From Candidatus Bathyarchaeota archaeon (GTDB lineage Archaea; Thermoproteota; Bathyarchaeia; Bathyarchaeales; Bathycorpusculaceae): a stretch of DNA of 49,736 nucleotides. The stretch lies in assembly GCA_963775685.1 (NCBI GenBank), contig CAVZJV010000003.1, positions 1-49,736 on the forward strand, in the 5' to 3' direction. The notes under the pieces are model-generated. The model ran no database searches. It worked only from the letters and a program-made list of their open reading frames with translations, and was not told where the DNA came from. The position numbers were made by a program, and so were the translations under genes. Each line of letters opens with the position of its first letter. The stretch's first letter is position 1. Of this stretch, positions 5,626 through 24,037 are shown piece after piece.

Positions 5626-6348
5626 TTGAAAAGCGGGGAACCTGACAGGGAAATTTCAATCCTGCTGCCAGCTTTCAACGAGGCAGGGAAGATTGAAAGA
5701 TGCGTGCGTGAAGTTGAGGCGGCTGTTAGGTCTTTTTCTAATTCGTATGAGATAATTGTGTCTGAAGACGGTAGCACCGACGGCACAGAAGTTATCGTTG
5801 CAAAAATTGCCGAATACAACCCCAACATCGTTCTTCTGCATTACCCTGCTCGTTTGGGCAAGGGCAAAGGCATCAAAAACGCCCTCAACGCCTCCAGAGG
5901 CAAAATCATAACGTTCATGGATGTTGACTTAGCAACAAACCTTGAATGCTTACCCCAGCTTCTAAACGTGGTTAAAGAACATGGTGGAATGGCAATCGGC
6001 TCCCGACATGTTGCAGGCTCGCGGGTTCAACGCGGAGTTTCCAGAACAATGTTCAGTCTCACCTACAACCTGGCAGTCAGGCTGCTTTTTCTCGACGGCA
6101 TCCGCGACCACCAATGTGGATTCAAAACCATGAGTCGCCCCGTTGCAGAGGCAGTGCTAAACGTTTCCAAATCAGACGGGTACTTCTTCGACACCGAGAT
6201 GATTGTGCGCTGCAAAAAACTGGGTTTTCCAGTGTCTGAAGTGGCAGTTCAATGGACAGAGCAGAGTAATGGCGCCTCAAAAGTTAATCCTGTGCGAGAT
6301 GCCAAGAAGATTGGTTTGGATTTGTTAGCTTTTAGGCTACGCTCTTAA
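5626..6348 (+). CDS. Glycosyltransferase family 2 (dolichyl-phosphate glycosyltransferase-like)
   Basis: ISILLPAFNE, EDGSTDGT, GKGKG, MDVD, IGSR, DHQCGFK and FDTEM motifs. Likely TTG start at 5626. Confidence 0.9.
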   Translation: MKSGEPDREISILLPAFNEAGKIERCVREVEAAVRSFSNSYEIIVSEDGSTDGTEVIVAKIAEYNPNIVLLHYPARLGKGKGIKNALNASRGKIITFMDVDLATNLECLPQLLNVVKEHGGMAIGSRHVAGSRVQRGVSRTMFSLTYNLAVRLLFLDGIRDHQCGFKTMSRPVAEAVLNVSKSDGYFFDTEMIVRCKKLGFPVSEVAVQWTEQSNGASKVNPVRDAKKIGLDLLAFRLRS

Positions 6349-7043
6349 GTGTTGCTGAATTTTTTAGCCATCCGCTTTAACCTCAAAAACTGCTGCTCAA
6401 GGTTTATGAACGCGGGCACAGTTTGACCAAAAGGCTGGCAGTGCCCATCCACTATCGCTTTGGCTACAGCTTCAACGGTTGGCTCCGCTGCTTCAATAAC
6501 TGTGTACCCGTAACCGATTTGTGGACCATAATGAGCGTCGGTTCCTGCAACACGTGAGAGCTTAAAATGCTCCGCAGCAGCCTCAGCTTTCTTAACGCTT
6601 CTTTTAAATGGGAAGGCCCGCGCGTTTATGACTTCGATGGCGTCGAATGTGCTGCTGACTTTTTCTCTTAGGCATCCTTTGAAGTATACGTAGGGGTGAC
6701 ATGCGATTGCGATTCCGCCGGCCCTGTGGATGCGCTCGACAGTTTCGACCGCGCTGAGACCTCTGGGGATAAGTTCTTTGACGTTAAGGGCGACGATGTG
6801 TCCGTCGGCGCTGGAGACTTCCATGCCGGGAATGATGAGGAAGTCGGTTTCTTTGGCGATTTTCCAAGCGCCTTCAAGCTGGTTGTGGTCGGTGACTGCG
6901 ACCGCGTTCAACCCGCGTTTCTTCGCGTAGTAAACGAGGTCTTTGCTAGTTATCAATGAATCTTTTGAGTAGGTTGTGTGAACGTGGAGGTCGGCACGTA
7001 TTTGAATTATAATTGCATCTCCATTAGTACTCTTTTGATCCAA
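6345..7043 (-). CDS. PHP-domain phosphoesterase; its N-terminus is supplied by the integrated element
   Basis: DLHVHT.YS.D, AVTDHN, PGMEVS, GHI, CHPY and GTDAH motifs. Codons upstream of D-L-H-V (above 6992) lie inside the element. The start is uncertain: TTG at 7043, or ATA/ATT at 7010/7007 after GGAG. Confidence 0.9.
   Translation of the reverse strand: MDQKSTNGDAIIIQIRADLHVHTTYSKDSLITSKDLVYYAKKRGLNAVAVTDHNQLEGAWKIAKETDFLIIPGMEVSSADGHIVALNVKELIPRGLSAVETVERIHRAGGIAIACHPYVYFKGCLREKVSSTFDAIEVINARAFPFKRSVKKAEAAAEHFKLSRVAGTDAHYGPQIGYGYTVIEAAEPTVEAVAKAIVDGHCQPFGQTVPAFINLEQQFLRLKRMAKKFSNT
6982..6992. repeat. Left attachment core ACGTGGAGGTC
   Basis: Identical to 16521-16531. Imperfect similarity extends further: 6982-7009 vs 16521-16548 match at 23/28 nt. 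Confidence 0.9.
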
Positions 7044-7115
7044 TATTTCTTGAATTTCGTATCATTAATACAACAACTTTTTTGTTCATTCAACCTTCAA
7101 TGAAACCTTTTTTCT

Positions 7116-7123
7116 TTATATAA
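7116..7123 (-). promoter_or_regulatory. Candidate element-borne TATA box for the restored PHP gene
   Basis: TTATATAA preceded on the minus strand by purine-rich GATAAG, about 75 nt upstream of the TTG at 7043. Confidence 0.3.
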
Positions 7124-7167
7124 CTTATCATCTGTGCTAACACCTAAGAGCCGCTTAAAAATAATGC

Positions 7168-7917
7168 TTAAGTTCTATTTTCCGAAGGCTCCTCATAGTC
7201 GTATGAAAAAAGTGATGTCTCTATTTTAAAGGGATTTTTATATTTCAGCCTGAGGTCTCTTTTGGGATATATCTCTTGCCCATTGAAATTGTCATTATAT
7301 GTCTCAAAGAAAGTGGTTCCCTGTTGATATTTTGGTGTAAGCATATGATATTTAAATAATCTCTCAGAAGCTGGCTTATAAACAACATTCAGTAGAAATG
7401 CTCCGGCAAGAGCGTCTCTAGTAGTCATAAGGTCTGCTTTTACGAAGTTAGCAGAAAAGTCGTGCTTGATTCCATTATAAGCTGTCCACCAATAGGGTAC
7501 TTTTCCGAATTCTTTCTTATACTCTTTAAATGGGAAAACTTCTTCGCTATTCGGCAGGCGCTTAAAAATTACCCCTTTTTCATAAAGTTTGTATTGTTCT
7601 GAAATTGATAAATAATCAATCATTTCTTGGTCTCTTTGCTCGCCCTTATGTACACCTTTTTTAATTTTAGGATTAATCATTTCAGGATATTCACTAATAA
7701 AATAGGGGTCTTGAGCAATTTTCTTAAAAGCGGAATCTATATGCGCTCCAATAACTAACATTATGTTAGCCAATCTAAAAGAGTAGGTTCGTTCATTCCC
7801 TTCCAAGTACGGGACTAATTCTAGGAAACTCTCAAACTGCCGCTCTATATCTTTGTAGTATTCCCAATAGCCACCATTTTCAAAAGTTGGGTTGAATCGA
7901 TTTTTTTCCTCTACCAT
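7168..7917 (-). CDS. Hypothetical protein, HEPN-like (candidate defence or toxin cargo)
   Basis: Pattern YW.YY..IE..F...TYS.RL...ID..FK ... PF..Y...P.WW.AYN.IKHD...A.L....ALAG.FLL, with an Nx2KH resembling the HEPN Rx4H site. Confidence 0.55.
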   Translation of the reverse strand: MVEEKNRFNPTFENGGYWEYYKDIERQFESFLELVPYLEGNERTYSFRLANIMLVIGAHIDSAFKKIAQDPYFISEYPEMINPKIKKGVHKGEQRDQEMIDYLSISEQYKLYEKGVIFKRLPNSEEVFPFKEYKKEFGKVPYWWTAYNGIKHDFSANFVKADLMTTRDALAGAFLLNVVYKPASERLFKYHMLTPKYQQGTTFFETYNDNFNGQEIYPKRDLRLKYKNPFKIETSLFSYDYEEPSENRT

Positions 7918-8139
7918 ATCACGTTATCTCTTTAATTTCCGTTTTAAGCGTTTGCACTAGCAATATTTTCGATATGAAGCAAAATCAAGAAGGGAAAACC
8001 TGCGCAAGTAAATTTTAATTATCTTCCAATTTGAATCAAATGCCTCTCTAAACAAGTCTTTAACAATAAAATAGAACAATACATTACATAGGTGAGTGAA
8101 ATGAAAACAAAGAAATCGGGGTTGTATGATGATACAAAA

Positions 8140-8270
8140 TCTTGGAATCCATTGGTCTGTTTCTTGCCTAAAGTATTTCGTAAGCATTAAAGCCTTTTCA
8201 TTTATTAGCGTATCAAGTTTTTGTTTGAATCAATCTCTAACCTGCATTTTCCAACAACCTCTCTAAAGAA
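8140..8270 (-). pseudogene. Probable decayed C-terminal fragment of a solo Cas1
   Basis: Reads FFREVVGKCRLEID/KQKLDTLINEKALMLTKYFRQETDQWIPR across a frameshift. This resembles my recollection of the C-terminal end of Bathyarchaeia Cas1 proteins (Q.I/LETLINEEALLLAKYLR.E...WIPR); not database-verified. Confidence 0.5.
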
Positions 8271-8282
8271 TTCACAGCATAA

Positions 8283-9008
8283 TTAATTCACATGTTCAAG
8301 AATTATAACAGTCACCTTTCCCAGGTCAGCATTTCCAAGCGGAACAACAATACAGTTCAAGTTAGCAGCATTTTGTTTCTCGGTTTCAGTTGAAGATTTG
8401 ATTACGCCACTTTCTATCCATGACTTTATCAATTTTTCATTGCCTGCATCATTGGCATCAACGAGATGATACAGAATTGGACTAACTTTTTTCCCCTTCT
8501 GCACTAAATGACATACTGTGTACTTATCTATCATTGGAAAGCCATCATACTGTGAGTAACCTGCCAAAGACTTAATATCAGGAACAATATGCTCCAAGCT
8601 CTCAAAAGCTGATTGAAGTAAACCATGCGCAAACCCCACTTTTAAAGCACATGCTGTCTTATTGAGCGGTTTACCTTTTTCTCCTCTAAGCAAACCGTCA
8701 ATCTGGACATACTGTGATTTTTTTCTGGATTTGTCTAATCTTGACGGACGTATAGTTCGTGTTAACTCATTATCCTGAATGTCGCCGTCTTTTACTTTTA
8801 GTTTGGCAGATACAAGATTTAATATGTCTTCATCTCTTAGGGCGTCAGGGCATTCTGTAGCTAACTGCGCTAGTTTTTCCAGCAGTAAACGTGTTTTTGA
8901 TCGTGCTCTGAACTTGACTTGCCTATAGTTGACTTTGTCAACTGTTTTATCCTTCTTTGTTAGGATAGCTTGTTCGTGTTCAGTTACCATTTTAAAAACC
9001 TTTGACAT
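8283..9008 (-). CDS. Hypothetical protein with a basic N-terminus, divergent from the RHH operon
   Basis: 241-aa ORF with GAGGT RBS; no family recognised. Confidence 0.7.
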   Translation of the reverse strand: MSKVFKMVTEHEQAILTKKDKTVDKVNYRQVKFRARSKTRLLLEKLAQLATECPDALRDEDILNLVSAKLKVKDGDIQDNELTRTIRPSRLDKSRKKSQYVQIDGLLRGEKGKPLNKTACALKVGFAHGLLQSAFESLEHIVPDIKSLAGYSQYDGFPMIDKYTVCHLVQKGKKVSPILYHLVDANDAGNEKLIKSWIESGVIKSSTETEKQNAANLNCIVVPLGNADLGKVTVIILEHVN

Positions 9009-9022
9009 TTCCTAAACCTCAG

Positions 9023-9055
9023 TGGTGACAGATTTCACGTTATTTTTTGTCACCA
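9023..9055. promoter_or_regulatory. Inverted repeat TGGTGACA-N17-TGTCACCA, candidate operator
   Basis: Perfect 8-bp arms at 9023-9030 and 9048-9055, between divergent genes. Confidence 0.55.
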
Positions 9056-9094
9056 ATCTTTACTTGCGTGGTGCATCTTAAAGGTTTAGCGGGT

Positions 9095-9259
9095 GTGATA
9101 AACACGATTGCAGAGTACCAAAAAATAATCGGTTTCCGTCTCTCCACAAAAGAACGCGAAAGCCTAGAAGCGCTCGTATCCGCGGGCAAGGTAAAAACGA
9201 TAAGCGCGGGAATCCGAGCGGCCCTAACTGATTATCTCACCAAACAACGGGAGCGTTAG
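9095..9259 (+). CDS. Ribbon-helix-helix (CopG-like) regulator
   Basis: KIIGFRLS.KE.E.LE.LV..G....IS..IR.AL.DYL pattern. Start is GTG at 9095 or ATT at 9107. Confidence 0.8.
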   Translation: MINTIAEYQKIIGFRLSTKERESLEALVSAGKVKTISAGIRAALTDYLTKQRER

Positions 9260-9261
9260 CC

Positions 9262-9351
9262 ATGACAGAACCAGAATTGAAGCAAGCGATTCAAGAATTT
9301 AAATCGATTCTTGAAGATGCACTTAAAATTCTTGACCCTGAAAAATCGTAA
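9262..9351 (+). CDS. Small helical protein (29 aa)
   Basis: MTEPELKQAIQEFKSILEDALKILDPEKS; GGGAG RBS; 2 nt after the RHH stop. Confidence 0.55.
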   Translation: MTEPELKQAIQEFKSILEDALKILDPEKS

Positions 9352-9421
9352 ATCTAATTGAATAACTGAACTTTGGAATTTTGTAAATTGGAGAAAAAAA
9401 AACAAATGAGAGAAAAAAACA

Positions 9422-9592
9422 ATGAACAATCGATACATAACAATAAAAATATCTGGCGAAGAGCATCAAATAAAACAGGCAATCGCCAAAATTGAATCTC
9501 AATTTCCCCTTTGCATAACGGGACAAATAATAAAAAACGGCAACGACGAAAACAGCCACGTTTTTTTAACAGCCGTCATTTTGGAGGCTTAA
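9422..9592 (+). CDS. Small hypothetical protein (56 aa)
   Basis: MNNRYITIKISGEEHQIKQAIAKIESQFPLCITGQIIKNGNDENSHVFLTAVILEA; its 3' end contains the GGAGG RBS of the next gene. Confidence 0.65.
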   Translation: MNNRYITIKISGEEHQIKQAIAKIESQFPLCITGQIIKNGNDENSHVFLTAVILEA

Positions 9593-9595
9593 CTT

Positions 9596-9706
9596 TTGAG
9601 CCTTATTTACACTAACCAAACTGATTTTATTCGCTGTAGATGTGGAGCGACTAATAGCAAATGGCAGGACCGCTGCCGCGTATGCGGAGAATTTCTGGGG
9701 GCGTAG
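9596..9706 (+). CDS. Small zinc-ribbon protein (36 aa)
   Basis: MSLIYTNQTDFIRCRCGATNSKWQDRCRVCGEFLGA (CxC...CxxC); TTG start after GGAGG. Confidence 0.6.
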   Translation: MSLIYTNQTDFIRCRCGATNSKWQDRCRVCGEFLGA

Positions 9707-9708
9707 GT

Positions 9709-11791
9709 ATGACCGAGCAAACTGCCCTTTATTGTCCTATCTGTAACAGCGAACTATCAGTAAGTACAGACGACTTAAAAACAAGATTCTTATAAATGCC
9801 CCACTCATGGCTTCATAACAACTCCAAAACAGGAAACCGACCCAACAATACTAAGTGATCCATTTAGAATAGAAGCTAAAGAAGTAAATGCAGAAAACGT
9901 CCAAGACGCAATCACTAAAGAAATAGCAGCTGCTAAAACAGAAGCAGACAGATTAGAGAAAATACGCTTAGGCCTAGAACAGTTAAGCATAAACCCCGAT
10001 TTAGAAGAGCTGTTTCTATCTGAAATCCATAAAACCGTTAGCTCATACGATGACCATATAGTAAAAATAGGGTTTCATGTGGCCTTATCTACTTTCGGTG
10101 AGCCGTTAAATTTAGCGTTAAAATGTGAATCGGGAGCCGGCAAAACATACAGTACCTTAGAAACTCTGCGTTTCATGCCACCGGAAAACGTGGTTGAAGT
10201 AGGTAGTCAATCCCCTAAAGTTTTCAGCCACCAAAACGGTATAAGAAAAACCGCTGACGGTGAATTATTAGATGAAAAAGATGAACCAAAAAAACCGGTA
10301 GAGAGAGACTTTGCAGACCCTAACTTTGGAATGGGAGACAGCGACAGAGAAGAATTTGCAGAAGCTAAGAAACGCTATGCAGTAGAGAAGCCGTTATGGG
10401 ATGAAAAAGTTAAGACTTCTATTTGGGAAGTCGATTCAAGAGGGATGATCTATTGCTACTTAGAAGGAATCAACCCAGAAACCTTCAAAATGATGAAAAC
10501 CACGATGTCTCACGACGCGCCATACATAGATCATATTTATGTAGATGACAAAGGCAAAAACCATACTACCCGCATAGTTGGGTCTCCAGTTATGATTTTT
10601 AACAGTTTAGACTCCGAATATATTTCGGAATTTGCCACCCGCTGCTTTACCGCTTCCCCTAACACAACCAAAGAAAAAGTGGCTGATGCAAACAGAATAA
10701 CCAATCAAAAAAGCTGTTATCCCTGGTTATATAGCGATGATGTTTTTCATAAACAATTAATTCGAGAGTACATACGCAAAATACGAGACAGTGCAAAATC
10801 TGGAAACTTACACACTATAAATCCCTTTGATGGAATAAACGAGATTTTTAGCAGAGACGCAATACGGGATATGCGTGACTTCAAAAAATATCTGGAGTTA
10901 ATGCCCAGCTTTGCACTCTTTAAACTATTTCAGCGGCCCATAATAACAATTGAAGGCAAACGCTACCTTATCCCAACAATACAGGACGCTTTAGACGCTA
11001 AAGCAGCATACAGCGCTATAATTGAAACCACTAAGATGGGAACAGAAGCGCGTGTACGTGATTTTTACTATAAAGTTGTAGCTGACAAAGTCAACGGATG
11101 CGATGCGGAAACATTAACAGATATTTACAATGATACGCGGGAACATAGTAGAAAAACAACTGTTAAAACCGTGCGTAATTGGCTTAACCGCTTAGAAGAG
11201 TTAGGTTATGTTGACGTAAGAGAAGGCCGCGAACGCAACGAACATGGAAATATCGATAGACGCTTCAATAATTATATACCTATACACCCAGCTAAAAATG
11301 CGCTAAATACGCCCGATTCAGAAACGGGCGCATTATCTGAGGCAATTCTGGAAAAGAACTTTGAAACATGGTTAAATAACGTGTCCTCTATTTCCGCCTC
11401 CCCACCCAATATTATGATGCTACGTATTGATGGAACAGCTAAATTAATCTCTGAAACAGAGCTAAAACAGATAGTATTAAAGAGAAGTATAGAAAAAACT
11501 CTTAACACCCCTCTAAATAAAAGACACGTTTTATTTAACGATACGGGTTCTAATTCGCCAATAGAGCTTGAAAGTACACCCGAATCTAAAAAGGACGTAA
11601 TCGGCGTATTATTAGAGAGTCAAACAGTTAAAGTGGAAACTGTACCTAACCACTTTTGTGGCTCTGATTGTGGACACTTTGATGCTCCCCAATGTCCTTG
11701 GAAAACCAAAAACCTGCCCAAAGAAACCCCGTTGCCTCTAAAATGCAATGGATATGCTGCACCGTTACCAACAAAGGAGGCGATTTTTTGA
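9709..11791 (+). CDS. Replication-like protein: N-terminal Zn ribbon, P-loop NTPase (helicase-like), winged HTH and C-terminal Cys cluster; one frameshift near 9790
   Basis: ATG 9709 MTEQTALYCPIC... joins YKCPTHG by a 1-nt shift and is then open into ORF 10079..11791. Walker A ESGAGKT; wHTH-like TVRNWLNRLEELGYVDV; terminal CGSDC...CPW...C. Confidence 0.7.
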
Positions 11792-12060
11792 GTCACGAAA
11801 GCAAGGAAAAAATAACATTGACAGTTAAGCAAAAGAAGCCCAGAGACAGACTTTTTCAGGTATTAAACGATATTTTAACCTTCGCTGAGCAAAAACGTAA
11901 GATTCCAAACAATAGCGACAAAATCAAGCAAGCATGGAGTCGAATTGCTATAAGCGCTATTTCGACGTATGGGCAGCTTCTCAAAGATTCGGAGTTGGAA
12001 GAAATCGAAGAGAGGCTTTCAAAATTGGAAACTGACAGTGAATTAAAAAAATATCGGTGA
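11788..12060 (+). CDS. Hypothetical element protein with a C-terminal ELEEIEERLSKLE coiled coil
   Basis: TTG start after GGAGG, overlapping the upstream TGA. Confidence 0.7.
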   Translation: MSHESKEKITLTVKQKKPRDRLFQVLNDILTFAEQKRKIPNNSDKIKQAWSRIAISAISTYGQLLKDSELEEIEERLSKLETDSELKKYR

Positions 12061-12067
12061 AAAAAAC

Positions 12068-12388
12068 ATGAGTAGTAAAACTTTCATACAGAGAATAAAA
12101 AAAATTGAACGTCCCACAACAGATCCAAGATGGTTAGTGGCAATTTTCGACGAATCAAAAAATAGCTTTTCAGGCTCTGATCTTGGCGAAGAACCTTTAA
12201 CGCCCGAGGAATTAAAAATCTGGCAGGAAAAACAAGACAAAAACACGCAAATTCTCATAATAGAAGTTGTTGAGAATAAACAAATAAATGTTAAGAACTA
12301 TGTTGACAAAAGCACCTCTGATTTGTTGAAACGTTACGAATCGCTAATCAGAAAATCAGAATCAAATTCGGAGGCTCCCAAGGCTTGA
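12068..12388 (+). CDS. Hypothetical element protein
   Basis: 106-aa ORF with GGTGA RBS and an N-terminal RIKKIE motif. Confidence 0.7.
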   Translation: MSSKTFIQRIKKIERPTTDPRWLVAIFDESKNSFSGSDLGEEPLTPEELKIWQEKQDKNTQILIIEVVENKQINVKNYVDKSTSDLLKRYESLIRKSESNSEAPKA

Positions 12389-12567
12389 TAGGTCAACGAC
12401 ATGATTTCCCCGTAACCTGCTCTTTATGCGGAGCCGAGACCACCTTACCTTTTAAACCTAATCAAGGTAAACCCGTTTTTTGCCGGAACTGCTTTCTGAA
12501 ACAAAAATCTCCCGTCAAGCAATCTAGAGAGTGCGGGTTATGGGCGCGAAGAAAAACGTTTGCTTAG
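12385..12567 (+). CDS. CxxC-x17-CxxC zinc-ribbon protein
   Basis: CSLCGAETTLPFKPNQGKPVFCRNCF. Confidence 0.8.
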   Translation: MIGQRHDFPVTCSLCGAETTLPFKPNQGKPVFCRNCFLKQKSPVKQSRECGLWARRKTFA

Positions 12568-12579
12568 CCCCTTTTTGCG

Positions 12580-12888
12580 GTGCTGTTATCTCAAACATCT
12601 AGGCTAGGCTGCCCAAAAAAATACTGTATTAACTGCAGGCTTTTTCAGAGGCGCTTTCATGAACACCGCCGCTATCTTAAACGAAAGGAAGCCGAGTTTT
12701 CTAGGCTGTCCGAAAAAATGGGTTCGGATTATATCGCTTTGCAGAAACATCTCAAGACCCTTGAAGCGATCTATAGCCAATATCCGGCGATGGCGACAGT
12801 CTGTTCGACCATGAATTTCAAAGAGCGAGAAAGAATTTGCAAGCCCGTGAGGAAACGTGCTTTTGCGTTGCAATATCGTTTAGCCTAG
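12580..12888 (+). CDS. Hypothetical protein
   Basis: 102-aa basic ORF with C...CINC; fills the operon gap, but start signals are weak. Confidence 0.4.
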   Translation: MLLSQTSRLGCPKKYCINCRLFQRRFHEHRRYLKRKEAEFSRLSEKMGSDYIALQKHLKTLEAIYSQYPAMATVCSTMNFKERERICKPVRKRAFALQYRLA

Positions 12889-12998
12889 GTCCGCAGAGGG
12901 GGGGTAGGGGGGTAACGGAGCCTATTTCGGGGTTCTTTTTTAGGTTTAAAGTGATTTTTTGCGGAATTTCAGCCCTATTATGGGGAGTTGTTTAGTTT

Positions 12999-13502
12999 AT
13001 GACGGCCACGGACGAAAAAGAAAAACTGAAAAAAGCGTTTCAAATTCTCGAATACGCGAATCCTGATGATTGAATTAATATTCTTTGTCAGCCGATAACA
13101 GCGGAAAATAAAATGAAATATGCAGATTATCTTTCAAGCGCTAAAAAATTGGTTGAAGCATATTTACATATGAATAGACGAAGATACCGAATATTCCAGA
13201 ATGCCCAGGAGCAAATTATCGATCTTTTGAAATCCAGCGAAATTTTGGAAGCGAAAGCCAAAGCGAAACTCAACCAAAACCCTTATGGTCGTGTAACGCG
13301 AGCCCAAGCTGAAGAGGCCTCCATGATCTCAAGTTTGGCAGGTTATTCTCAGGGAAAAGCAAGTATTTTGATGTTGGGTGCAACCAAAGACGTTTTTAAC
13401 GAAATCATTAAGGCCGCTAACGCGATAGGGTTTCTTAAACAAAAAATTGCGTCTTGGCAGAACACTTTTGAAGTGGATAAAAAAGGAAACATTCAGATTT
13501 GA
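12999..13502 (+). CDS. Hypothetical helical protein with an in-frame TGA at 13071-13073
   Basis: ATG 12999 follows GGGGAG and is in frame with ORF 13113..13502, separated by a single TGA. Confidence 0.55.
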
Positions 13503-13510
13503 ATGGAAAG

Positions 13511-13620
13511 TTTTTGCTTCACTGAAACGCGCGGATCTTAGCGTCCGGGTTTCGTTGACGGCCCGGGGGCTGGTTACCCACAAACGCTTTTCACCTCGGC
13601 GCGCAGCAAAGAAGCAAAAA
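13511..13620. ncRNA. GC-rich multi-stem structure (candidate ncRNA or ssDNA origin)
   Basis: Nested complementary pairs: TTTTTGCTTC/GAAGCAAAAA, CTG-aaa-CGCGC/GCGCGCAG, AGCGT/ACGCT, CCGGGT/GCCCGG and GGG/CCC. Confidence 0.45.
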
Positions 13621-13725
13621 TCTATTAATTTATAATCCATGCCTTTGTTAGTTTTTTGCGCAAATGTGCGTAGATGAAAAGTGTTATATCTCTATTATAC
13701 TGCTTACTTAAATGAGGTTTGTTAG

Positions 13726-14211
13726 TTGGGTTTTCTTGACCATAAAGGCGGAGCAGAATATCCATATTTCAAGGACGATGTTTTTAATGCTCTAATTTAC
13801 GCTGTAAATAAAATCAAAGGAATGAAAATAGAAAAATCGGATAAACTCAGCGGACATATTTTGGTTAAAGCTGGAGCGAGCTTGATGTCTTGGGGCGAAA
13901 ACATCCCCATCTCAGTAGCAGAGATAGCGTATGGAAAAACAAGAGTAGACGTGTTATCCACACCTAAAACTGGAATCCTGTTTGGCGGTGCCTTGGACTT
14001 TGGAAAGAACCGAGGCAACATTGAAAAGATTCTTGAAGGAACCTCCAGAGAACTTAGCAAATACCCTCCAGTGCCGCCTCAGACTTCTCAAAAACTGCCT
14101 GAGGGAGATATATCAGGGCGTCTTCAGAAACTTAAGTCGCTCTTAGACAGCGGTGCCATCAGTAATGATGATTACGAGAAGAGAAAACGCGAAATCCTCT
14201 CTCAACTCTAA
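13726..14211 (+). CDS. SHOCT-domain protein
   Basis: C-terminal RLQKLKSLLDSGAISNDDYEKRKREILSQL. Confidence 0.8.
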   Translation: MGFLDHKGGAEYPYFKDDVFNALIYAVNKIKGMKIEKSDKLSGHILVKAGASLMSWGENIPISVAEIAYGKTRVDVLSTPKTGILFGGALDFGKNRGNIEKILEGTSRELSKYPPVPPQTSQKLPEGDISGRLQKLKSLLDSGAISNDDYEKRKREILSQL

Positions 14212-14239
14212 GACCTGAAAAGAGGCAAAAATCAAAAAA

Positions 14240-14954
14240 ATGAAAACCAAAATTCTTCTTACCCTGTCCCTAATCATTTTCATCGCAACAGCCGCGGCTA
14301 TAAGTACCCTACCGTCTGCTCAAGCTGAAAACTGGCAAACAGTCAAAACAATAACGGGGTCATCCGACCAAACCACAAGCACCTTCACCATTACCGCAAA
14401 CGAGTGGCGAATACAATGGAGTTACACCCCGGACCTAAAATACCCTCAGTATTCAGGTTTTTACTTTTTTGTTTATCCAAAAGGTGAAACATCACATTAT
14501 GTCAGCCATGTTTCTGCTGGAGACACCCAGACCAGTAACACTGAGTACATCTACGAGGGAAAAGACAGTTACTACTTGAAAATCCTAAGTGCAAACATTC
14601 CAAGCTACACCATCACTATACAACAAAACCAAGTCAGCAGTTCCACCACCAATCCCACTAACACCTCAAACACCTCAAGCACAGAAATCCCAATGTCGGG
14701 CTTAGTAGGCCTGCTCGTAATTATCATAATAATAATTGTAATTGTAGTATTACTAATGAGCCGAAAAAAAACCCATCCCCCGGTGGTTCAATCCCAAACT
14801 ATGCCTCCCCCACCGCCGACTAATGTCTCTCAAAACAGTTCTGGAGGCGATATAGCAGGGCGTTTAGACAAGCTTAAGGGTCTCCTTGATAGAAATCTCA
14901 TAAGCAAGGAAGAATACGAGAATAGGAAAAAGGGAAATCCTCTCTCAAGTTTAA
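14240..14954 (+). CDS. Signal-peptide, single-pass membrane protein with a C-terminal SHOCT domain
   Basis: Signal peptide, beta-rich ectodomain, Ser/Thr linker, TM helix, Pro-rich linker, then SHOCT. Removing one A from the run near 14930 gives RKREILSQV*, matching the upstream paralogous tail. Confidence 0.8.
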
Positions 14955-14977
14955 ACGTGTATGGTCTCGTTGCTTCT

Positions 14978-16474
14978 TCATTGGTTTGCTTTACTAAGTT
15001 TCTTTTCTAGTTCAAGAACCCGCTTAAGCAACGCTTCTATACCTGATTTATCTGCTTCGATCCTGTTAACTTTCACTTGCAACTCTCCTATTTGCTGATC
15101 CTTCTTAGATCCATTCTGAATTAATGCATCAATTATTTGCTCTTTAGACTGGATTTTTTCGCCTAATTCTTCAAGTTTCTTTGTGTCTAAATTCTGGTTT
15201 GAAAACACGTTGAGAGCCGGATCAACCTTTAAGTATTGAGTTCTGAAATACTCGGGATACACTTCTGGGCTTTTGTCGTATCCAAGTTTCTCTGTGGAGT
15301 GCCCAATAAAGAACTCAGCTACAGGAAAATCTAAACCAGCCACAGTGCAAGCGGTGCGGAAGGTGTCTCTTAATTCGTGGCAGTGGAAGCGGTAGCGAAC
15401 CTCAGAAGGCTTCCCATATTTGCGGCTTTCCAACCCTGAAGAAAACGCTAAATTATTGAATGCTACGCTTAGGCTTTGCTTCTGAACTGGGTTTCTCTGG
15501 GAAGTAATAAACAGGGGGTCTCCAGCTTTAACAGGTTGACCCGTAAGAGTCTGCCTAACGTGAAGCCAACTCTGCAAGGCTTTAACAGCGTCTAAACCTA
15601 AGAAACTGTAGTATCGAACTTGGGTTTTTACTCGGTAGAGGCTGATCTTCACTGGGGCTTTAGACAGATCCCAAAGGTCAGGGTTTTCTCCTCCAAGTTG
15701 CTTGGCTATTTCGCTCCAGCAATTAAAATTAAAATGCTCAGTGAAAGTTGAACGATCCATACCGCTCTGCAGCATACAAAGGAAAACCGCTTTCATTCTC
15801 GGGTCAGCGTTGGTTAACAGTTGCCTTACTTCGTCTAAAGTGATAGGTTGCTGAGTTACAGTGTGCCTTGGCTCTTTATCGTTGAAGCGTATAACGTAGC
15901 TTGGCAACTCTGCTTTGTTGTGTTTGTAGAAGCTTCGGATGGCTGTATAGGTGCTTTTCTTTTTGGATGCTGGAAACCCTTTCTCGTCTAAGTAGTCTTC
16001 TATCATGTTGATGTGTTGGTAGCGGTCTTTGTCGTTTTGGGCAAACTGCTTATGCTCAAGCATAGCGTCAGCTGATTCAAAGTATCCTTTAGCTTTAACC
16101 CAGATGACATATTCAAGGAATAAATACAGGAATTTCTCTTTGGTTTCTTCGCTTCTAAGCCGCTTTAGCCAAGCTTTTATTGCTGGTGAACTCTCGACTT
16201 GTTCACGCTTAAGCTTAGATGCTGGATACTCTTTAAGGTCTAAAATCGAGTTCGCTAAGCCTTTGCTCTTCAACCGATACAACACAACATCAGCTGCTTT
16301 CCTGTTGGCTCTACCGTGCTTGTATCCGATTATTGTGATTAACTCATCTATGTTGAAGACTTTGTTTGGTTGAGCTTTCAAAGCGTTTAAGCATATTCGC
16401 TGTTTCTTCTGAAGATGCTCAGAAGTGTCTTTAACAAACTTCCAGCCTACTACTTCCTTTTTCATCCAAACCAC
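14978..16474 (-). CDS. Tyrosine recombinase / site-specific integrase
   Basis: SAM-like core-binding domain (AIRSFYKHN), QSGMDRS, RVKT, HELRDTF, FFIGH and LGY motifs; adjacent to the right att site. Confidence 0.92.
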   Translation of the reverse strand: MVWMKKEVVGWKFVKDTSEHLQKKQRICLNALKAQPNKVFNIDELITIIGYKHGRANRKAADVVLYRLKSKGLANSILDLKEYPASKLKREQVESSPAIKAWLKRLRSEETKEKFLYLFLEYVIWVKAKGYFESADAMLEHKQFAQNDKDRYQHINMIEDYLDEKGFPASKKKSTYTAIRSFYKHNKAELPSYVIRFNDKEPRHTVTQQPITLDEVRQLLTNADPRMKAVFLCMLQSGMDRSTFTEHFNFNCWSEIAKQLGGENPDLWDLSKAPVKISLYRVKTQVRYYSFLGLDAVKALQSWLHVRQTLTGQPVKAGDPLFITSQRNPVQKQSLSVAFNNLAFSSGLESRKYGKPSEVRYRFHCHELRDTFRTACTVAGLDFPVAEFFIGHSTEKLGYDKSPEVYPEYFRTQYLKVDPALNVFSNQNLDTKKLEELGEKIQSKEQIIDALIQNGSKKDQQIGELQVKVNRIEADKSGIEALLKRVLELEKKLSKANQ

Positions 16475-16501
16475 TGAAAGAGTACTATGTCAGACCCAAT
16501 A

Positions 16502-16546
16502 TTAAAACGTGTTTACCACGACGTGGAGGTCCGCATTTATCTGCAT
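16502..16546 (-). pseudogene. Stranded native 5' end of the PHP gene (MQINADLHV, then VVNTF* from element DNA)
   Basis: ATG 10 nt after the metG stop, with GAGGCG RBS; matches the PHP N-terminal motif up to the att core. Confidence 0.88.
16521..16531. repeat. Right attachment core ACGTGGAGGTC
   Basis: Identical to 6982-6992; 46 nt from the integrase start. Confidence 0.9.
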
Positions 16547-16556
16547 TAATTCGCCT

Positions 16557-18251
16557 CTATTTTGGAGGCGCCTTCGCCCTTATCTGCGCCAATTGTTCTT
16601 CGAGTTTTATTTCGTTGGAGTCTATTTTGTGGAAAAGCGGGGTTGGCTTATTTATTTTGTGCCCTGCCTCTATCGGCTGTAAGGCGTCGCTCCAGCGGCT
16701 TTTGCCGACGGTTTCAGGGAGATTTAGTGTTTGCCAAAGTTGCTGCGCCGTCTGGGGCATAAAGGGCTCCGAAACCACCGCGATTGACTTAACGACCTGC
16801 GCTGCAACGTAGAAGATTGTGCCTGCTTTTTCCCTATCAGTCTTCATCAGGTTCCACGGTTCCTTCGTGTTAAGGTACTGGTTACCTATGCGACTAATGG
16901 CGATAAGCGCATTCGCGGCGGATTGCAGCCATGAATCCTCGATTTCCTTTGCCGCACGCTCCACCTTCTCCTTTACTGCCTGCAGGACTGCTTCGTCGTC
17001 TTTGTCGAGTTTGGTAGGTACTGGGATTTGCCCGTCGAACTTGCTGTTTATGAACGAGAGAGTCCGGTGGATGAAGTTGCCGAAGGTGTCGTTTAAGTCA
17101 GCGTTGATTTTCTCCAAGAACGCGGTCCATGTGAAGTTGGTGTCTTTACTTTCGGGTCTTGTAGCGATGAGGAAGAAGCGCCAGTAGTCCAGTGGAAACA
17201 TCTCTAATGCTTCGTCTATCCATATGCCCACCCGCTGGCTTTTGGAGGCTTTTTGTCCTCTGAACTGGAGGAATTCAGTGGCGGAAATGTTCCACGGCAG
17301 ATTGTAGCCTTGACCCGAAGCCAACAGCAAGGCTGGCAATATTATGGTGTGGAAAGGAATATTATCTTTACCAACGAAGTACAGGGTTTTAGCGTCTTTG
17401 TCAAACCAGAATTCACGCCACTTCTCAGGCTGCCCTAAGCGCTGGCACAACTCGATAGTAGCAGAAACATAGCCTAAAACGGCATCCACCCAAACGTAGA
17501 TGGTTTTGCCCTCTGCTCCTTCAAACGGCGCTGGGATGCCCCATTCGACGTCACGGGTGACGGCGCGGGGTTTTAAGCCTTCTTTAATCCAGTTTAAACT
17601 AAAGTTCTTCACGTTAGTTGGCAATTGTTGGTTTTCCTTTAGGAACTGGGTTAAGGGTTCGGCGAGCCTTGATAGGTCGATGTACCAGTGCCTTGTAGTC
17701 TTCAAGGTGGGCTTGCTCTTGCAGATGACACAATACGGATTCACCAGAGCTGTGGGTTCCAGAAGTTTGCCACAGATGTCACATTGGTCGCCTCGGGCTT
17801 TTTCGCAGCCGCAGTAGGGGCATTTGCCCTCGACAAAGCGGTCGGGTAAAAACCGTTGATCATGCTCACAGTAGAGCATCTGGGTGTCTTGAGCGAATAT
17901 GTAACCGTTCTTTTGGATTTCAAGCAAGGTTTTTTGGACAAACTCTTTGTGGATGGGGCTCTCGGTGCTGGTATAGTTGTCAAAGGAGGCATTCCATCGG
18001 TGGAAAAGCTCTGCGACGCTGGCGTGGTTGCGGTCTGTCAAAGCTTTGGGTGTGATGCCCTGTTTTATGGCTTCTACCTCAATGGGTGTACCATGCGTGT
18101 CGGAGCCGCTTACCATCAAAACATCACTACCTTTAAGGCGGTAGTATCGGGCAGTAACGTCGGCGGAAAGCACCGAGCCAACAAGGTTACCAAGATGAGG
18201 CGTAACATTGATGTACGGCCAAGCGGATGTAACTAAAACTTTTTCAAGCAA
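16557..18251 (-). CDS. metG: Methionine--tRNA ligase
   Basis: TSAWPYIN..PHLGN, SGSDTHG, Zn knuckles, YVWVDA, GKDNIPFH and KASKS. Likely TTG start at 18251; no C-terminal Trbp111 domain. Confidence 0.97.
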   Translation of the reverse strand: MLEKVLVTSAWPYINVTPHLGNLVGSVLSADVTARYYRLKGSDVLMVSGSDTHGTPIEVEAIKQGITPKALTDRNHASVAELFHRWNASFDNYTSTESPIHKEFVQKTLLEIQKNGYIFAQDTQMLYCEHDQRFLPDRFVEGKCPYCGCEKARGDQCDICGKLLEPTALVNPYCVICKSKPTLKTTRHWYIDLSRLAEPLTQFLKENQQLPTNVKNFSLNWIKEGLKPRAVTRDVEWGIPAPFEGAEGKTIYVWVDAVLGYVSATIELCQRLGQPEKWREFWFDKDAKTLYFVGKDNIPFHTIILPALLLASGQGYNLPWNISATEFLQFRGQKASKSQRVGIWIDEALEMFPLDYWRFFLIATRPESKDTNFTWTAFLEKINADLNDTFGNFIHRTLSFINSKFDGQIPVPTKLDKDDEAVLQAVKEKVERAAKEIEDSWLQSAANALIAISRIGNQYLNTKEPWNLMKTDREKAGTIFYVAAQVVKSIAVVSEPFMPQTAQQLWQTLNLPETVGKSRWSDALQPIEAGHKINKPTPLFHKIDSNEIKLEEQLAQIRAKAPPK

Positions 18252-18372
18252 AGGTATCATCAACAAACCGTTTGGTGTCAACCTTATTAAAATTGCTATA
18301 AATCATTTGTAGGTTTATTTTGGTAAGGCTTAAATCATGAAAACGCGCTACCCGTAGTTTGAGGTTTCACAG

Positions 18373-22728: not shown

Positions 22729-23040
22729 TTAAAAACCTGCTGGCTCGGGCTTTAGGAGTTCTCGGATTTGCTTTTCGTGTACTTGCCGAGTGGTTAAGGG
22801 GTAGATTTCTCGTTCACTGTCAAAGAACATAGGGTCCTGTCCGATGATTTTTGAGAGCTTTTCGTCTGAGTCAACGTTAACTATGAGCATGCTCCCTTGC
22901 TGACCAATGAGGTGATAGGTGGCTTCAAGCGTTTTGTCTTTTTCTAAGCTATCAAAATATTTGAATTGCATAGGAAGCAATTTTGCCCATTTTTCTATGG
23001 GAACCTCGCGTTTGATTTTCTGTATGATTAAAAACTTCAT
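22729..23040 (-). CDS. Muconolactone isomerase/DUF3303-like protein
   Basis: MKFLI, G..LIVNVDS.E.L...I..DP and EIYPL pattern. Confidence 0.6.
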   Translation of the reverse strand: MKFLIIQKIKREVPIEKWAKLLPMQFKYFDSLEKDKTLEATYHLIGQQGSMLIVNVDSDEKLSKIIGQDPMFFDSEREIYPLTTRQVHEKQIRELLKPEPAGF

Positions 23041-23587
23041 AATTATCCCTAAAAAGAATGTGTCTGTTTAGTTATAAAATCTTTCTTTGAAAAAGCCATA
23101 GTTTCTTGACGTTTTTGCAGTGCAATGTATATTGTTTAATTGGGATAATAATTTTCATATTCTGTTCAAAAAATACCAAGCCTTATGCTTTCTTTCTGCA
23201 AATGTCTGCTTATATTTCTTGGGAGTGAATGTTATTTATTTTGGAGTAAAATTTTATAAAAATAGTGTACGGTAGACGGACACTTATTGAGTGTGGAGCA
23301 TATTTGTCTCGAATTGCTAAGAAAAAAAAGCCTCGACAAAGCGGGTCATCTGAGATAAAATGTTCTTTGAGGGATGAGGATTTTACTGGTTCCAAACGTT
23401 AAAGTCATGAGCGAATCCATCGAAGTTCGAGTCGCGAAGCGTATAAGCAAAATAAAAGACTCAAGAAGCCGAAACGGAAACTGAACTCATACACGACGAC
23501 TTGATAGCTAAAATAATAGAAAAAGAAATCATATCATAGAATCTTTTGCGAAACAAAAGAAAAAAAGATTTTTAGAAGAAGACATAT

Positions 23588-23740
23588 TTACGGTTTGTTC
23601 TCTCCACCTCGCCTCATCATCTCGGGAATCTTTGTGGAAGCCTTAGACATCGCGTCTTTAACTACACTCATCAATTCCTCGTTAACTTCGAGTTCAACGG
23701 TTACTTTCAACTTACCTTTCTTCTCAGGCATTTCAGTCAT
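23588..23740 (-). CDS. Small hypothetical protein (50 aa)
   Basis: MTEMPEKKGKLKVTVELEVNEELMSVVKDAMSKASTKIPEMMRRGGENKP, with a strong AGGAGGTG RBS. Confidence 0.75.
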   Translation of the reverse strand: MTEMPEKKGKLKVTVELEVNEELMSVVKDAMSKASTKIPEMMRRGGENKP

Positions 23741-23761
23741 GGAACCACCTCCTAAACTTGC

Positions 23762-24037
23762 TTAACTGTTTAGGAAAAAAAAGTTACCTAAAAGATGCAC
23801 AGCTTGTTTGCCCGTTAAATTTAAATCCATCTCGATTCGGTAGTGATATTTGCCTAGTCGTTTTGTGTGAGTTTTGTAGTCACCGATTGTCCCTGCTTTC
23901 TTGAAACGATGCAGTTGCTGGTTCATCAGAACTGTAATTGCTGTGGGCGCTAAAGGTTCAAAAACGAAAGCAACCCTCATTAGAACGCGAACTGCACTAC
24001 CGATGAGTGATTCGGAAACTGATTCTTCATTTGCCAT
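23762..24037 (-). CDS. Hypothetical protein
   Basis: 91-aa ORF with GAGG RBS, co-oriented with the 50-aa ORF. Confidence 0.65.
   Translation of the reverse strand: MANEESVSESLIGSAVRVLMRVAFVFEPLAPTAITVLMNQQLHRFKKAGTIGDYKTHTKRLGKYHYRIEMDLNLTGKQAVHLLGNFFFLNS

Follow-up and report, generated by a model that had tools for sequence, protein, structure and literature searches.

Can a mobile element settle in the codons of a catalytic motif, carry off the beginning of a host protein gene and leave that gene readable? The question is raised by a stretch of 49,736 nucleotides (the window) from Candidatus Bathyarchaeota archaeon (genome G000; GenBank assembly GCA_963775685.1, contig CAVZJV010000003.1), in which a long segment separates metG from the gene of a PHP metallohydrolase. 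Positions 6993–16531 of the window are a plasmid-like mobile element integrated in the genome of a member of Bathyarchaeia. It is site-specific and probably of the target-restoring type, with direct repeats at both ends and an integrase gene at one of them. The fuller account, which comparison with related genomes makes probable in our judgement, is that a motif-targeting integrase inserted the element into the PHP gene, that the element supplied a substitute N-terminus, and that the same integrase family has switched between this gene and that of endonuclease Q.

Boundaries of the element

The features that define the locus are the following (window coordinates).

6345–6992, minus strand: body of the host PHP metallohydrolase gene, intact from the D of DLHVH to the stop codon (PF02811, PF13263)
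6982–6992: attL copy of the 11-nt core, reading D-L-H-V on the minus strand (from the repeat count and the empty-site comparison)
6993–7043, minus strand: element-supplied in-frame 5′ extension, (M)DQKSTNGDAIIIQIRA, with TTG at 7043 and ATT/ATA at −7, −6 and −5
6993–7125, minus strand: conserved element arm of about 130 nt, kept in the element of the relative G093, with GGAGAT at 7017–7022 and TTATATAA at 7116–7123
16502–16546, minus strand: displaced native PHP start (MQI[KRN]A type in relatives), now a chimeric open reading frame (ORF) of 14 codons, MQINADLHVVVNTF, then a stop
16521–16531: attR copy of the 11-nt core (from the repeat count and the empty-site comparison)
16557–18281, minus strand: metG, the host gene immediately ahead of the PHP gene where the site is empty

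The core, ACGTGGAGGTC, is present exactly twice in the window, with a start-to-start spacing of 9539 nt; the chance expectation is 0.01, and none of 100 shuffled sequences contained two matches. The direct repeat extends imperfectly to 28 nt, 23 of them identical. Read on the minus strand it is GACCTCCACGT, the D-L-H-V codons of the DLHVH motif of the PHP metallohydrolase. The G + C content falls from about 0.52 to 0.33–0.42 inside the segment and is about 0.49 again outside it. metG, the tyrosine integrase gene and the PHP gene all lie on the minus strand, and no tRNA genes were found in the window. A second dip in G + C content (0.35–0.37) is located downstream of the element, at 22801–23800.

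The PHP gene scores 45.5 bits with PF02811, 41.8 bits with PF13263 and 97.9 bits with the NCBIfam model of the CehA/McbA metallohydrolase domain (cut-off 80); residues D18, H20 and H22 of its product are invariant in 16 sequences. At the left copy of the core, the frame ...NGDAIIIQIRA runs into the intact body (DLHVHTTYS...). At the right copy, the stranded start MQINADLHV begins 10 nt past the metG stop codon and reaches a stop after 14 codons. An earlier reading of the window, made from its letters and ORFs (the sequence-only reading), had described these two N-termini, a repeat consisting of the D-L-H-V codons and a unit of 9539 bp. Its repeat was accurate to the base in coordinates and in translation, both N-termini were found as claimed, and the repeat spacing confirms the length of the unit.

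Empty sites in relatives

The closest relative with the site is G127, whose PHP protein is 90 per cent and whose metG is 92 per cent identical; here metG is followed by a gene beginning MQIKADLHVH. The empty attB of G127 matches the attR of G000 up to the core and its attL from the core onward, with break-points that flank the core. In two public runs, contigs of a relative (approx. 85% identical) connect 6994 with 16536, again an empty site. The proposal of a site-specific integrative element is thus upheld by the empty site in G127 and across the genus.

Among 19 PHP loci of relatives, 17 have metG directly upstream of the PHP gene, and the N-termini encoded there are of the M/L-x-I-x-A type (MQIKA, MQIRA, MLIRA, MRITA, MQINA and M(T)TIQIRA); the remaining two are extra, non-syntenic PHP copies. 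The gap between the two genes was tallied by hand from coordinates in the 104 congeners that have both on one contig. It is at most 90 nt in 88 of them, 180–265 nt in eight, 0.8–1.4 kb in six and more than 9 kb in two (G093 and G045). Five genomes were left unscored: G124 and G070 (genes on different contigs), G088 (no PHP match), G009 (partial) and G126 (no metG match).

The mid-sized gaps were considered as possible remnants of elements and rejected as such, having no blastn match to any element. Those of 0.8–1.4 kb in G020, G047, G107, G065 and G002 (loci L010, L049, L050, L051 and L024) are mutually homologous. Some species apparently have an extra host gene, conserved over about 0.8–0.9 kb, between metG and the PHP gene, and species with gaps of about 200 nt retain just its 3′ tail. 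The syntenic metG of G002 (L024, G002:C7:188000-199000) looks chimeric, residues 11–364 being 52 per cent and residues 364–570 90 per cent identical to G000; the PHP gene adjoining it matches in three fragments only, within query residues 11–215.

The integrase family and its attachment core

A protein search gave 33 integrases at E ≤ 1e-10, of which 32 are 49–95 per cent identical, and scans of metagenome and genome contigs gave 105 integrase loci; the relatives belong to Bathyarchaeia. A displaced start of the form M-x-x-x-A-D-[LF]-H lies 60–100 nt upstream, on the same strand, in all 11 close homologues (50–95% identical) that have the N-terminus and enough upstream sequence, as tallied by hand. 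In 10 of these, the string is A-D-L-H preceded by a start codon; in L070 it is A-D-F-H. The motif string occurs within 700 nt upstream of none of the 88 distant homologues (less than 45% identity), 43 of which have at least 500 nt available, and distant relatives at 30–38 per cent identity lack N-terminal residues 1 to about 97. Three loci that start at contig ends (L068, L072 and L073) and two fragments (L164 and L166) were not scored.

The same junction recurs in other elements. G093 carries an element of 9613 bp with GACCTCCACGT at both ends, and both of its junctions are present at the identical core. Its integrase, 51 per cent identical and in the same place and orientation, is an intact ORF of 449 amino acids, shorter at the C-terminus; beyond the integrase, no cargo similarity between the G000 and G093 elements was detectable. 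At L062 the integrase is 95 per cent identical, the host metG just 80 per cent identical, and the junction falls at the same base. A displaced start lies behind metG in five cases (G000, L062, L069, L142 and L143, the last being the G093 locus). The metG-linked PHP site has thus been used independently in G093, L062, L069 and L142, and endonuclease Q in G111, L063, L066 and L067.

The attachment core of the integrase clade consists of the codons of A-D-L-H-(V/I/L), which specify the last part of beta-strand 1 together with the first metal-binding histidine and stand at the very 5′ end of genes of the PHP fold. The suggestion that the family targets a protein gene at a conserved catalytic motif holds more widely than it was made, since all 11 homologues follow it, in this PHP gene or in endonuclease Q. 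A scan of IMG/VR with the integrase alignment revealed no relative among free or viral forms. An exact search of the genus for the arm pattern matched G000 and G093 alone; four further matches with one mismatch are regarded as background, because a reversed control pattern gave five.

Endonuclease Q as a second target

Endonuclease Q is the target in at least five close homologues. In G111, L066 and L067, the gene bordering the distal end of the element starts ...ADLH[IM]H[GS]R[FY]SRATSE. The downstream gene of L067 matches the solved structure of endonuclease Q (PDB 5zb8/7k30) at E 1.8e-71, residues 13–430 against 4–393; it scores 228 bits with TIGR00375, below the equivalog cut-off of 326.6. 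These elements are bounded by direct repeats 15 nt long, which read GCGGACTTGCACATC in G111, where they are 4.0 kb apart, and ATTGCTGATCTACAT in L067. The upstream host gene in G111 and L063 encodes a flavin mononucleotide (FMN) reductase.

Endonuclease Q is unoccupied in all 13 relatives compared, where the gene begins M/L-x-x-I-A-DLH[IV]H, mostly M[RK]VIA, and is preceded by the FMN reductase gene in 10. The empty endonuclease Q site of G007 shares the flank of the G111 attR, and the leader at L064 is the same as at empty endonuclease Q sites. The targets of L070 and L065 are unproven.

A maximum-likelihood tree of 18 integrases supports the motif-targeting clade at 96/96 and, nested in it, a clade of the seven rows that are of the endonuclease Q type or unassigned (99/97). 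The nesting fits one target switch between two genes with nothing in common but the PHP-fold N-terminus. Since sister integrases recombine at these same codons in endonuclease Q, the clade has switched between two non-orthologous genes by way of the motif that they share.

Proposed rebuilding of the 5′ end of the PHP gene

Six left junctions could be compared (G000, G093, G045, G111, L066 and L067). In all six the frame is open for at least 13 codons upstream of the core (judged by eye in G111) and the alanine at −1 persists; so does a hydrophobic residue at −3, except in G111, where V stands at −3 and Y at −2. The last residues before the core are QIRA in G000 and G045, KILA in G093, RVYA in G111, and RVIA in L066 and L067. 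Canonical start codons occur at four or five of the six junctions, namely GTG in L066 and L067, TTG in G111 and G045, and the distant TTG (−17) of G000; they are preceded by purine-rich motifs resembling GGAG or AGGA, as judged by eye. Synonymous differences are found at conserved residues, in the A codon of G000 and G093 and in the I, A and D codons of L066. The arms of G000 and G093 align over about 130 nt, including TTATATAA and GGAGAT, and in both ATT stands 5 nt past GGAG. Purifying selection on the arm is plausible at most from six junctions.

In the AlphaFold2 model of the rebuilt PHP protein (mean predicted local distance difference test score, pLDDT, 90.9), residues 1–7 are disordered and beta-strand 1 comprises residues 13–21, so that the IQIRA supplied by the element would be structural and form the first half of the strand. 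The ratio of non-synonymous to synonymous substitution rates (dN/dS) on the PHP branch of G000 is 0.05–0.12, similar to that on the unoccupied G127 branch.

The element has recombined at the motif codons of the PHP metallohydrolase gene behind metG. Recombination has stranded the native promoter region, the start codon and the first eight codons beside the integrase gene, and has joined the gene body to an element arm that carries the frame on with a substitute N-terminus. The arm may serve as integrase arm sites, as promoter and ribosome-binding site of the rebuilt gene, or as both: it would supply a ribosome-binding-like GGAG and a TATA-like box, and a start codon, either the TTG at 7043 or an ATT/ATA codon at −7, −6 or −5. 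With these signals the PHP gene would stay functional, initiated from element DNA. We lean somewhat towards the rebuilt gene being expressed.

Several observations weigh against this account. In G093, the stretch from the in-frame stop upstream to DLHVH contains no ATG, GTG or TTG, and the only canonical in-frame start in G000 is the TTG 17 codons upstream. PHP matches are broken or partial in G114, G021 and G079 and at the syntenic loci of G002 and G071; the gene is dispensable in some congeners, so that nothing compels its restoration. The frameshifted integrase copy L071 lacks the motif upstream. In G111, a frameshift separates the DLHIH motif of endonuclease Q from the remainder of the gene (L144, G111:C1, 13925–14119), and the integrase is broken up into two ORFs, of 353 and 158 amino acids (11044–11112). 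These breaks may be decay or long-read assembly errors. All genomes are metagenome-assembled, and several are long-read bins, in which frame breaks may be sequencing errors. Synonymous divergence is near saturation, and dN/dS can neither date the insertion nor distinguish a silent insertion of old date from a recent one. The two public DNA runs with the region, which are stored as contigs, contain small shares of it (0.07–0.08) and come from relatives rather than from the strain of the window, yielded neither a circular junction nor an excision product or transcript, and no public RNA runs containing the region are listed.

Alternative explanations

The recoded N-terminus might be the PHP 5′ allele of an earlier host, picked up through the crossover position or by imprecise excision and drifted since, and not shaped by selection inside the element. 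We give this slightly less than even weight. The PHP genes of G006, G017, G018 and G065 natively begin M(T)TIQIRADLHVH, with codons nearly the same as those of the G000 arm, and cores vary from element to element, each agreeing with its own host (11 nt in G000 and G093, differing 15-nt strings in G111 and L067). For these two reasons the arm is best read as a host-derived allele residing in attP, much as islands at tRNA genes carry one. A captured allele is compatible with functional restoration, but it leaves the persistence of the frame and of key residues in six junctions unexplained, and the arm lacks the ATG of those native alleles. The sequence-only reading is affected in two places. The synonymous differences that it saw in the Q (CAG/CAA) and A (GCG/GCC) codons are real, and the selection on the peptide that it drew from them is just one interpretation, the arm resembling the native allele of other species. 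It also took a native IQIRAD start in relatives as evidence to the contrary; such starts exist in distant congeners and not in the near relatives of G000, which retains its own displaced MQINA.

Less likely, though to be taken seriously, is that the same element at the same site switches the PHP gene off, the gene being restored only upon excision (regulated gene integrity), and that the likeness of arm and 5′ end reflects just the homology of attP and attB that the integrase needs. The missing canonical start in G093, the distant TTG in G000, the congeners that tolerate a broken PHP gene and the broken endonuclease Q frame in the carrier G111 would all agree with silencing. It is harder to reconcile with silencing that six of six left junctions are in frame with the alanine kept, that most have canonical starts behind purine-rich motifs, and that an arm of about 130 nt is conserved between elements otherwise sharing the integrase only. 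Moreover, the unoccupied PHP genes of G004 (L052), G063 (L055), G051 (L056) and G133 (L057) also have no ATG, GTG or TTG from the in-frame stop to DLHVH; in G133 and G063 an ATC at −5 stands directly behind the stop codon (TAA in G133). Near-cognate initiation may therefore be normal for this gene in this genus.

It is highly improbable that the repeat is fortuitous and that the segment represents a nonspecific island or a mis-joined assembly: short repeats are common here (at least 60 direct-repeat families in 11.5 kb), but the core has the low chance expectation given above, the break-points against the empty site are clean, and the recurrence of the junction in the independent assemblies L062, L069, L142 and G093 already contradicts the idea, since all of these junctions would have to be artefacts.

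Integrase and cargo of the element

The features within the element are as follows.

7168–7917, minus strand: cargo ORF of 249 amino acids, no family match
8283–9008, minus strand: cargo ORF of 241 amino acids, no family match
9047–9259, plus strand: ORF of 70 amino acids, weak match to the ribbon-helix-helix family RHH_1 (E 0.024, below cut-off)
10079–11791, plus strand: protein of 570 amino acids with a GAGKT P-loop motif (spotted by eye)
11692–12060, plus strand: protein of 122 amino acids; besides the integrase, the sole cargo gene common to the endonuclease-Q-type elements G111, L067 and L063
13726–14211, plus strand: SHOCT-domain protein, 89 per cent identical in the sister element L062
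14240–15010, plus strand: membrane protein with a SHOCT-like tail
14978–16474, minus strand: tyrosine integrase (PF00589), intact when integrated, probable start ATG 16465
16498–16507, minus strand: AT-rich, TATA-like box between the core and the integrase gene, its position conserved among family members

The integrase gene is present in a single copy in the G000 genome. Its product matches PF00589 over residues 274–394 (36.9 bits, cut-off 27.1) and the PHROG 1 integrase at E 2.5e-10; with the XerA model it scores 31.6 bits, against a cut-off of 220. Residues R241, K283, H366, R369, H392 and Y399 are unchanged across an alignment of 24 family members and, as we read the motifs RYRFHxHELRD and LGYDKSP, would be the catalytic R-K-H-R-H/W-Y set. 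The core at 16521–16531 lies about 45 nt upstream of the integrase start (ATG 16465 or GTG 16474), and the box at 16498–16507 may be the integrase promoter. Among archaeal integrases, the pNOB8-like or ‘type II’ enzymes have attP outside the gene, and the SSV-type enzymes are termed ‘suicidal’. The integrase ORF is whole in the integrated state, which places the element outside the SSV-type, self-splitting class.

Pfam, PHROGs and NCBIfam gave no firm annotation for the products of 7168–7917, 8283–9008, 10079–11791 and 11692–12060. The protein of 570 amino acids, for which there was no Pfam or NCBIfam match, is probably a replication protein, offered as a lead only: its neighbours in the ESM Atlas include clusters named DNA primase and clusters carrying PF27228, and PHROG matches to DnaD-like and replication-initiation proteins are weak. 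The 122-residue protein belongs to a type of about 100–120 amino acids that recurs across elements, while other cargo varies; the L067 element, for example, encodes a D5-type primase-helicase. No capsid or virion genes were recognised in Pfam and PHROG scans of the element proteins, and we read the elements as plasmid-like integrative elements.

The ORF of 70 amino acids is 65 per cent identical to an ORF in a decayed insertion of G088, described below. A related element (approx. 93% identical) in two public metagenome runs is without the gene of the SHOCT-tailed membrane protein (256 amino acids); there, 14205 is joined to 14996, with 41 other letters in place of window positions 14206–14995.

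Other occupants of the site and extra PHP copies

G045 has a 38-kb insertion at the same site (L046/L047, G045:C2:218300-258000), with a displaced MQINADL after metG and a PHP gene preceded by TTG-MKDPDKIQIRA. This insertion holds beta-helix/NosD proteins and a DDE transposase, and tblastn found no integrase of the motif-targeting family in it. G088 contains a decayed occupant (L060, G088:C57:19000-24200), in which the native MQINA codons are fused to an integrase-like C-terminal coiled-coil tail followed by element-like DNA. Around metG, G088 and G045 are 98 per cent identical; the G088 genome, 69 per cent complete, gave no PHP match.

Intact extra PHP copies, 89–91 per cent identical to that of G000, are located at unrelated loci in G002 (L021, G002:C3), G001 (L022, G001:C3) and G071 (L061, G071:C2); G002 and G071 have a broken syntenic copy. 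The extra copy of G001 lies beside RNA polymerase, L7Ae and KH-domain genes, and that of G002 beside methyltransferase and radical-SAM genes. Their leader, (M)NKTKDPNKFQ[VI]RA, resembles the left junction of G045, and their 3′ flanks are 87 per cent identical to DNA of the decayed G088 insertion. Among extra copies with an element-type leader, dN/dS is about 0.10. The arrangement suggests that the junction of element and PHP gene may have been mobilised as a unit.

Relation to known systems and significance

In islands at tRNA and tmRNA genes, the integrase splits a conserved gene, the island regenerates it, and a displaced fragment marks the other end (PMC4383910). The present element follows the same principle (that of Islander), with a tyrosine integrase, a gene split and regenerated, and a displaced fragment; it differs in that the target is protein-coding and that restoration concerns the 5′ end, with the start codon and the signals upstream of it, rather than the 3′ end of an RNA gene.

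Att sites within protein genes have been described for archaea (PMC8371274). Of 68 elements of Thaumarchaeota, 14 lie in protein genes, all 3′-distal, and in NitEve-E2 the last 8 nt and the stop codon are replaced by element sequence (Krupovic et al. 2019, PMC6563490). Those elements resemble ours in being archaeal and in having short att sites within protein genes; unlike ours, none is reported there at a 5′ end or a catalytic motif, although the supplementary tables may list more. Archaeal integrases with attP outside the gene are distinguished from those whose gene is split on integration (PMC7253208), and our integrase resembles the former, its gene being whole after integration and attP lying just upstream. 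In bacterial satellites, one integrase clade repeatedly targets prophage late genes (PMC10111431). Our family likewise combines one clade with several protein-gene targets; the satellites, in contrast, interrupt genes, and the shared feature of the targets here is the catalytic-motif codons at the gene start.

We found no account of endonuclease Q or PHP genes as integration targets in the literature, where supplementary att-site tables might hold more, and no description of this motif-targeting integrase family. Phage 21 and e14 in the icd gene of Escherichia coli carry a diverged gene end that keeps the protein whole, with largely synonymous differences. Unlike the present case, this concerns the 3′ end of a bacterial gene, with no replacement of promoter or start, and we know of no switching between paralogues for these phages. 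New is the combination of a 5′-end restoration that includes start signals, a core in a catalytic motif, and two non-orthologous target genes within one integrase clade.

The landing site is a constant at the protein level, the first metal-binding motif of a fold, which parallels the use of tRNA genes. Landing on such a fold-level motif explains how one integrase clade could move between unrelated genes sharing the PHP fold, and since the restored part is the 5′ end, the start signals of the host gene are replaced by element DNA. A possible generalisation, which we put forward tentatively, is that the catalytic-motif codons (A-D-L-H-x-H, first metal ligands of the PHP fold) are a portable landing pad between the CehA/McbA-like phosphoesterase and the DNA-repair nuclease endonuclease Q, that a 5′ cassette of the element (TATA-like box, GGAG, start codon and first beta-strand residues) takes over initiation, and that the junction can be mobilised as a unit, as the copies in G001, G002 and G071 would indicate. 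If this is true, the element and not the host sets the level of the nuclease or phosphoesterase, a possible route for mobile-element control of either enzyme. The family also offers integrases with short, defined cores (11–15 nt) for Bathyarchaeia, which to our knowledge lack genetic tools, and a natural series of attB variants with which to study how tyrosine integrases read their targets.

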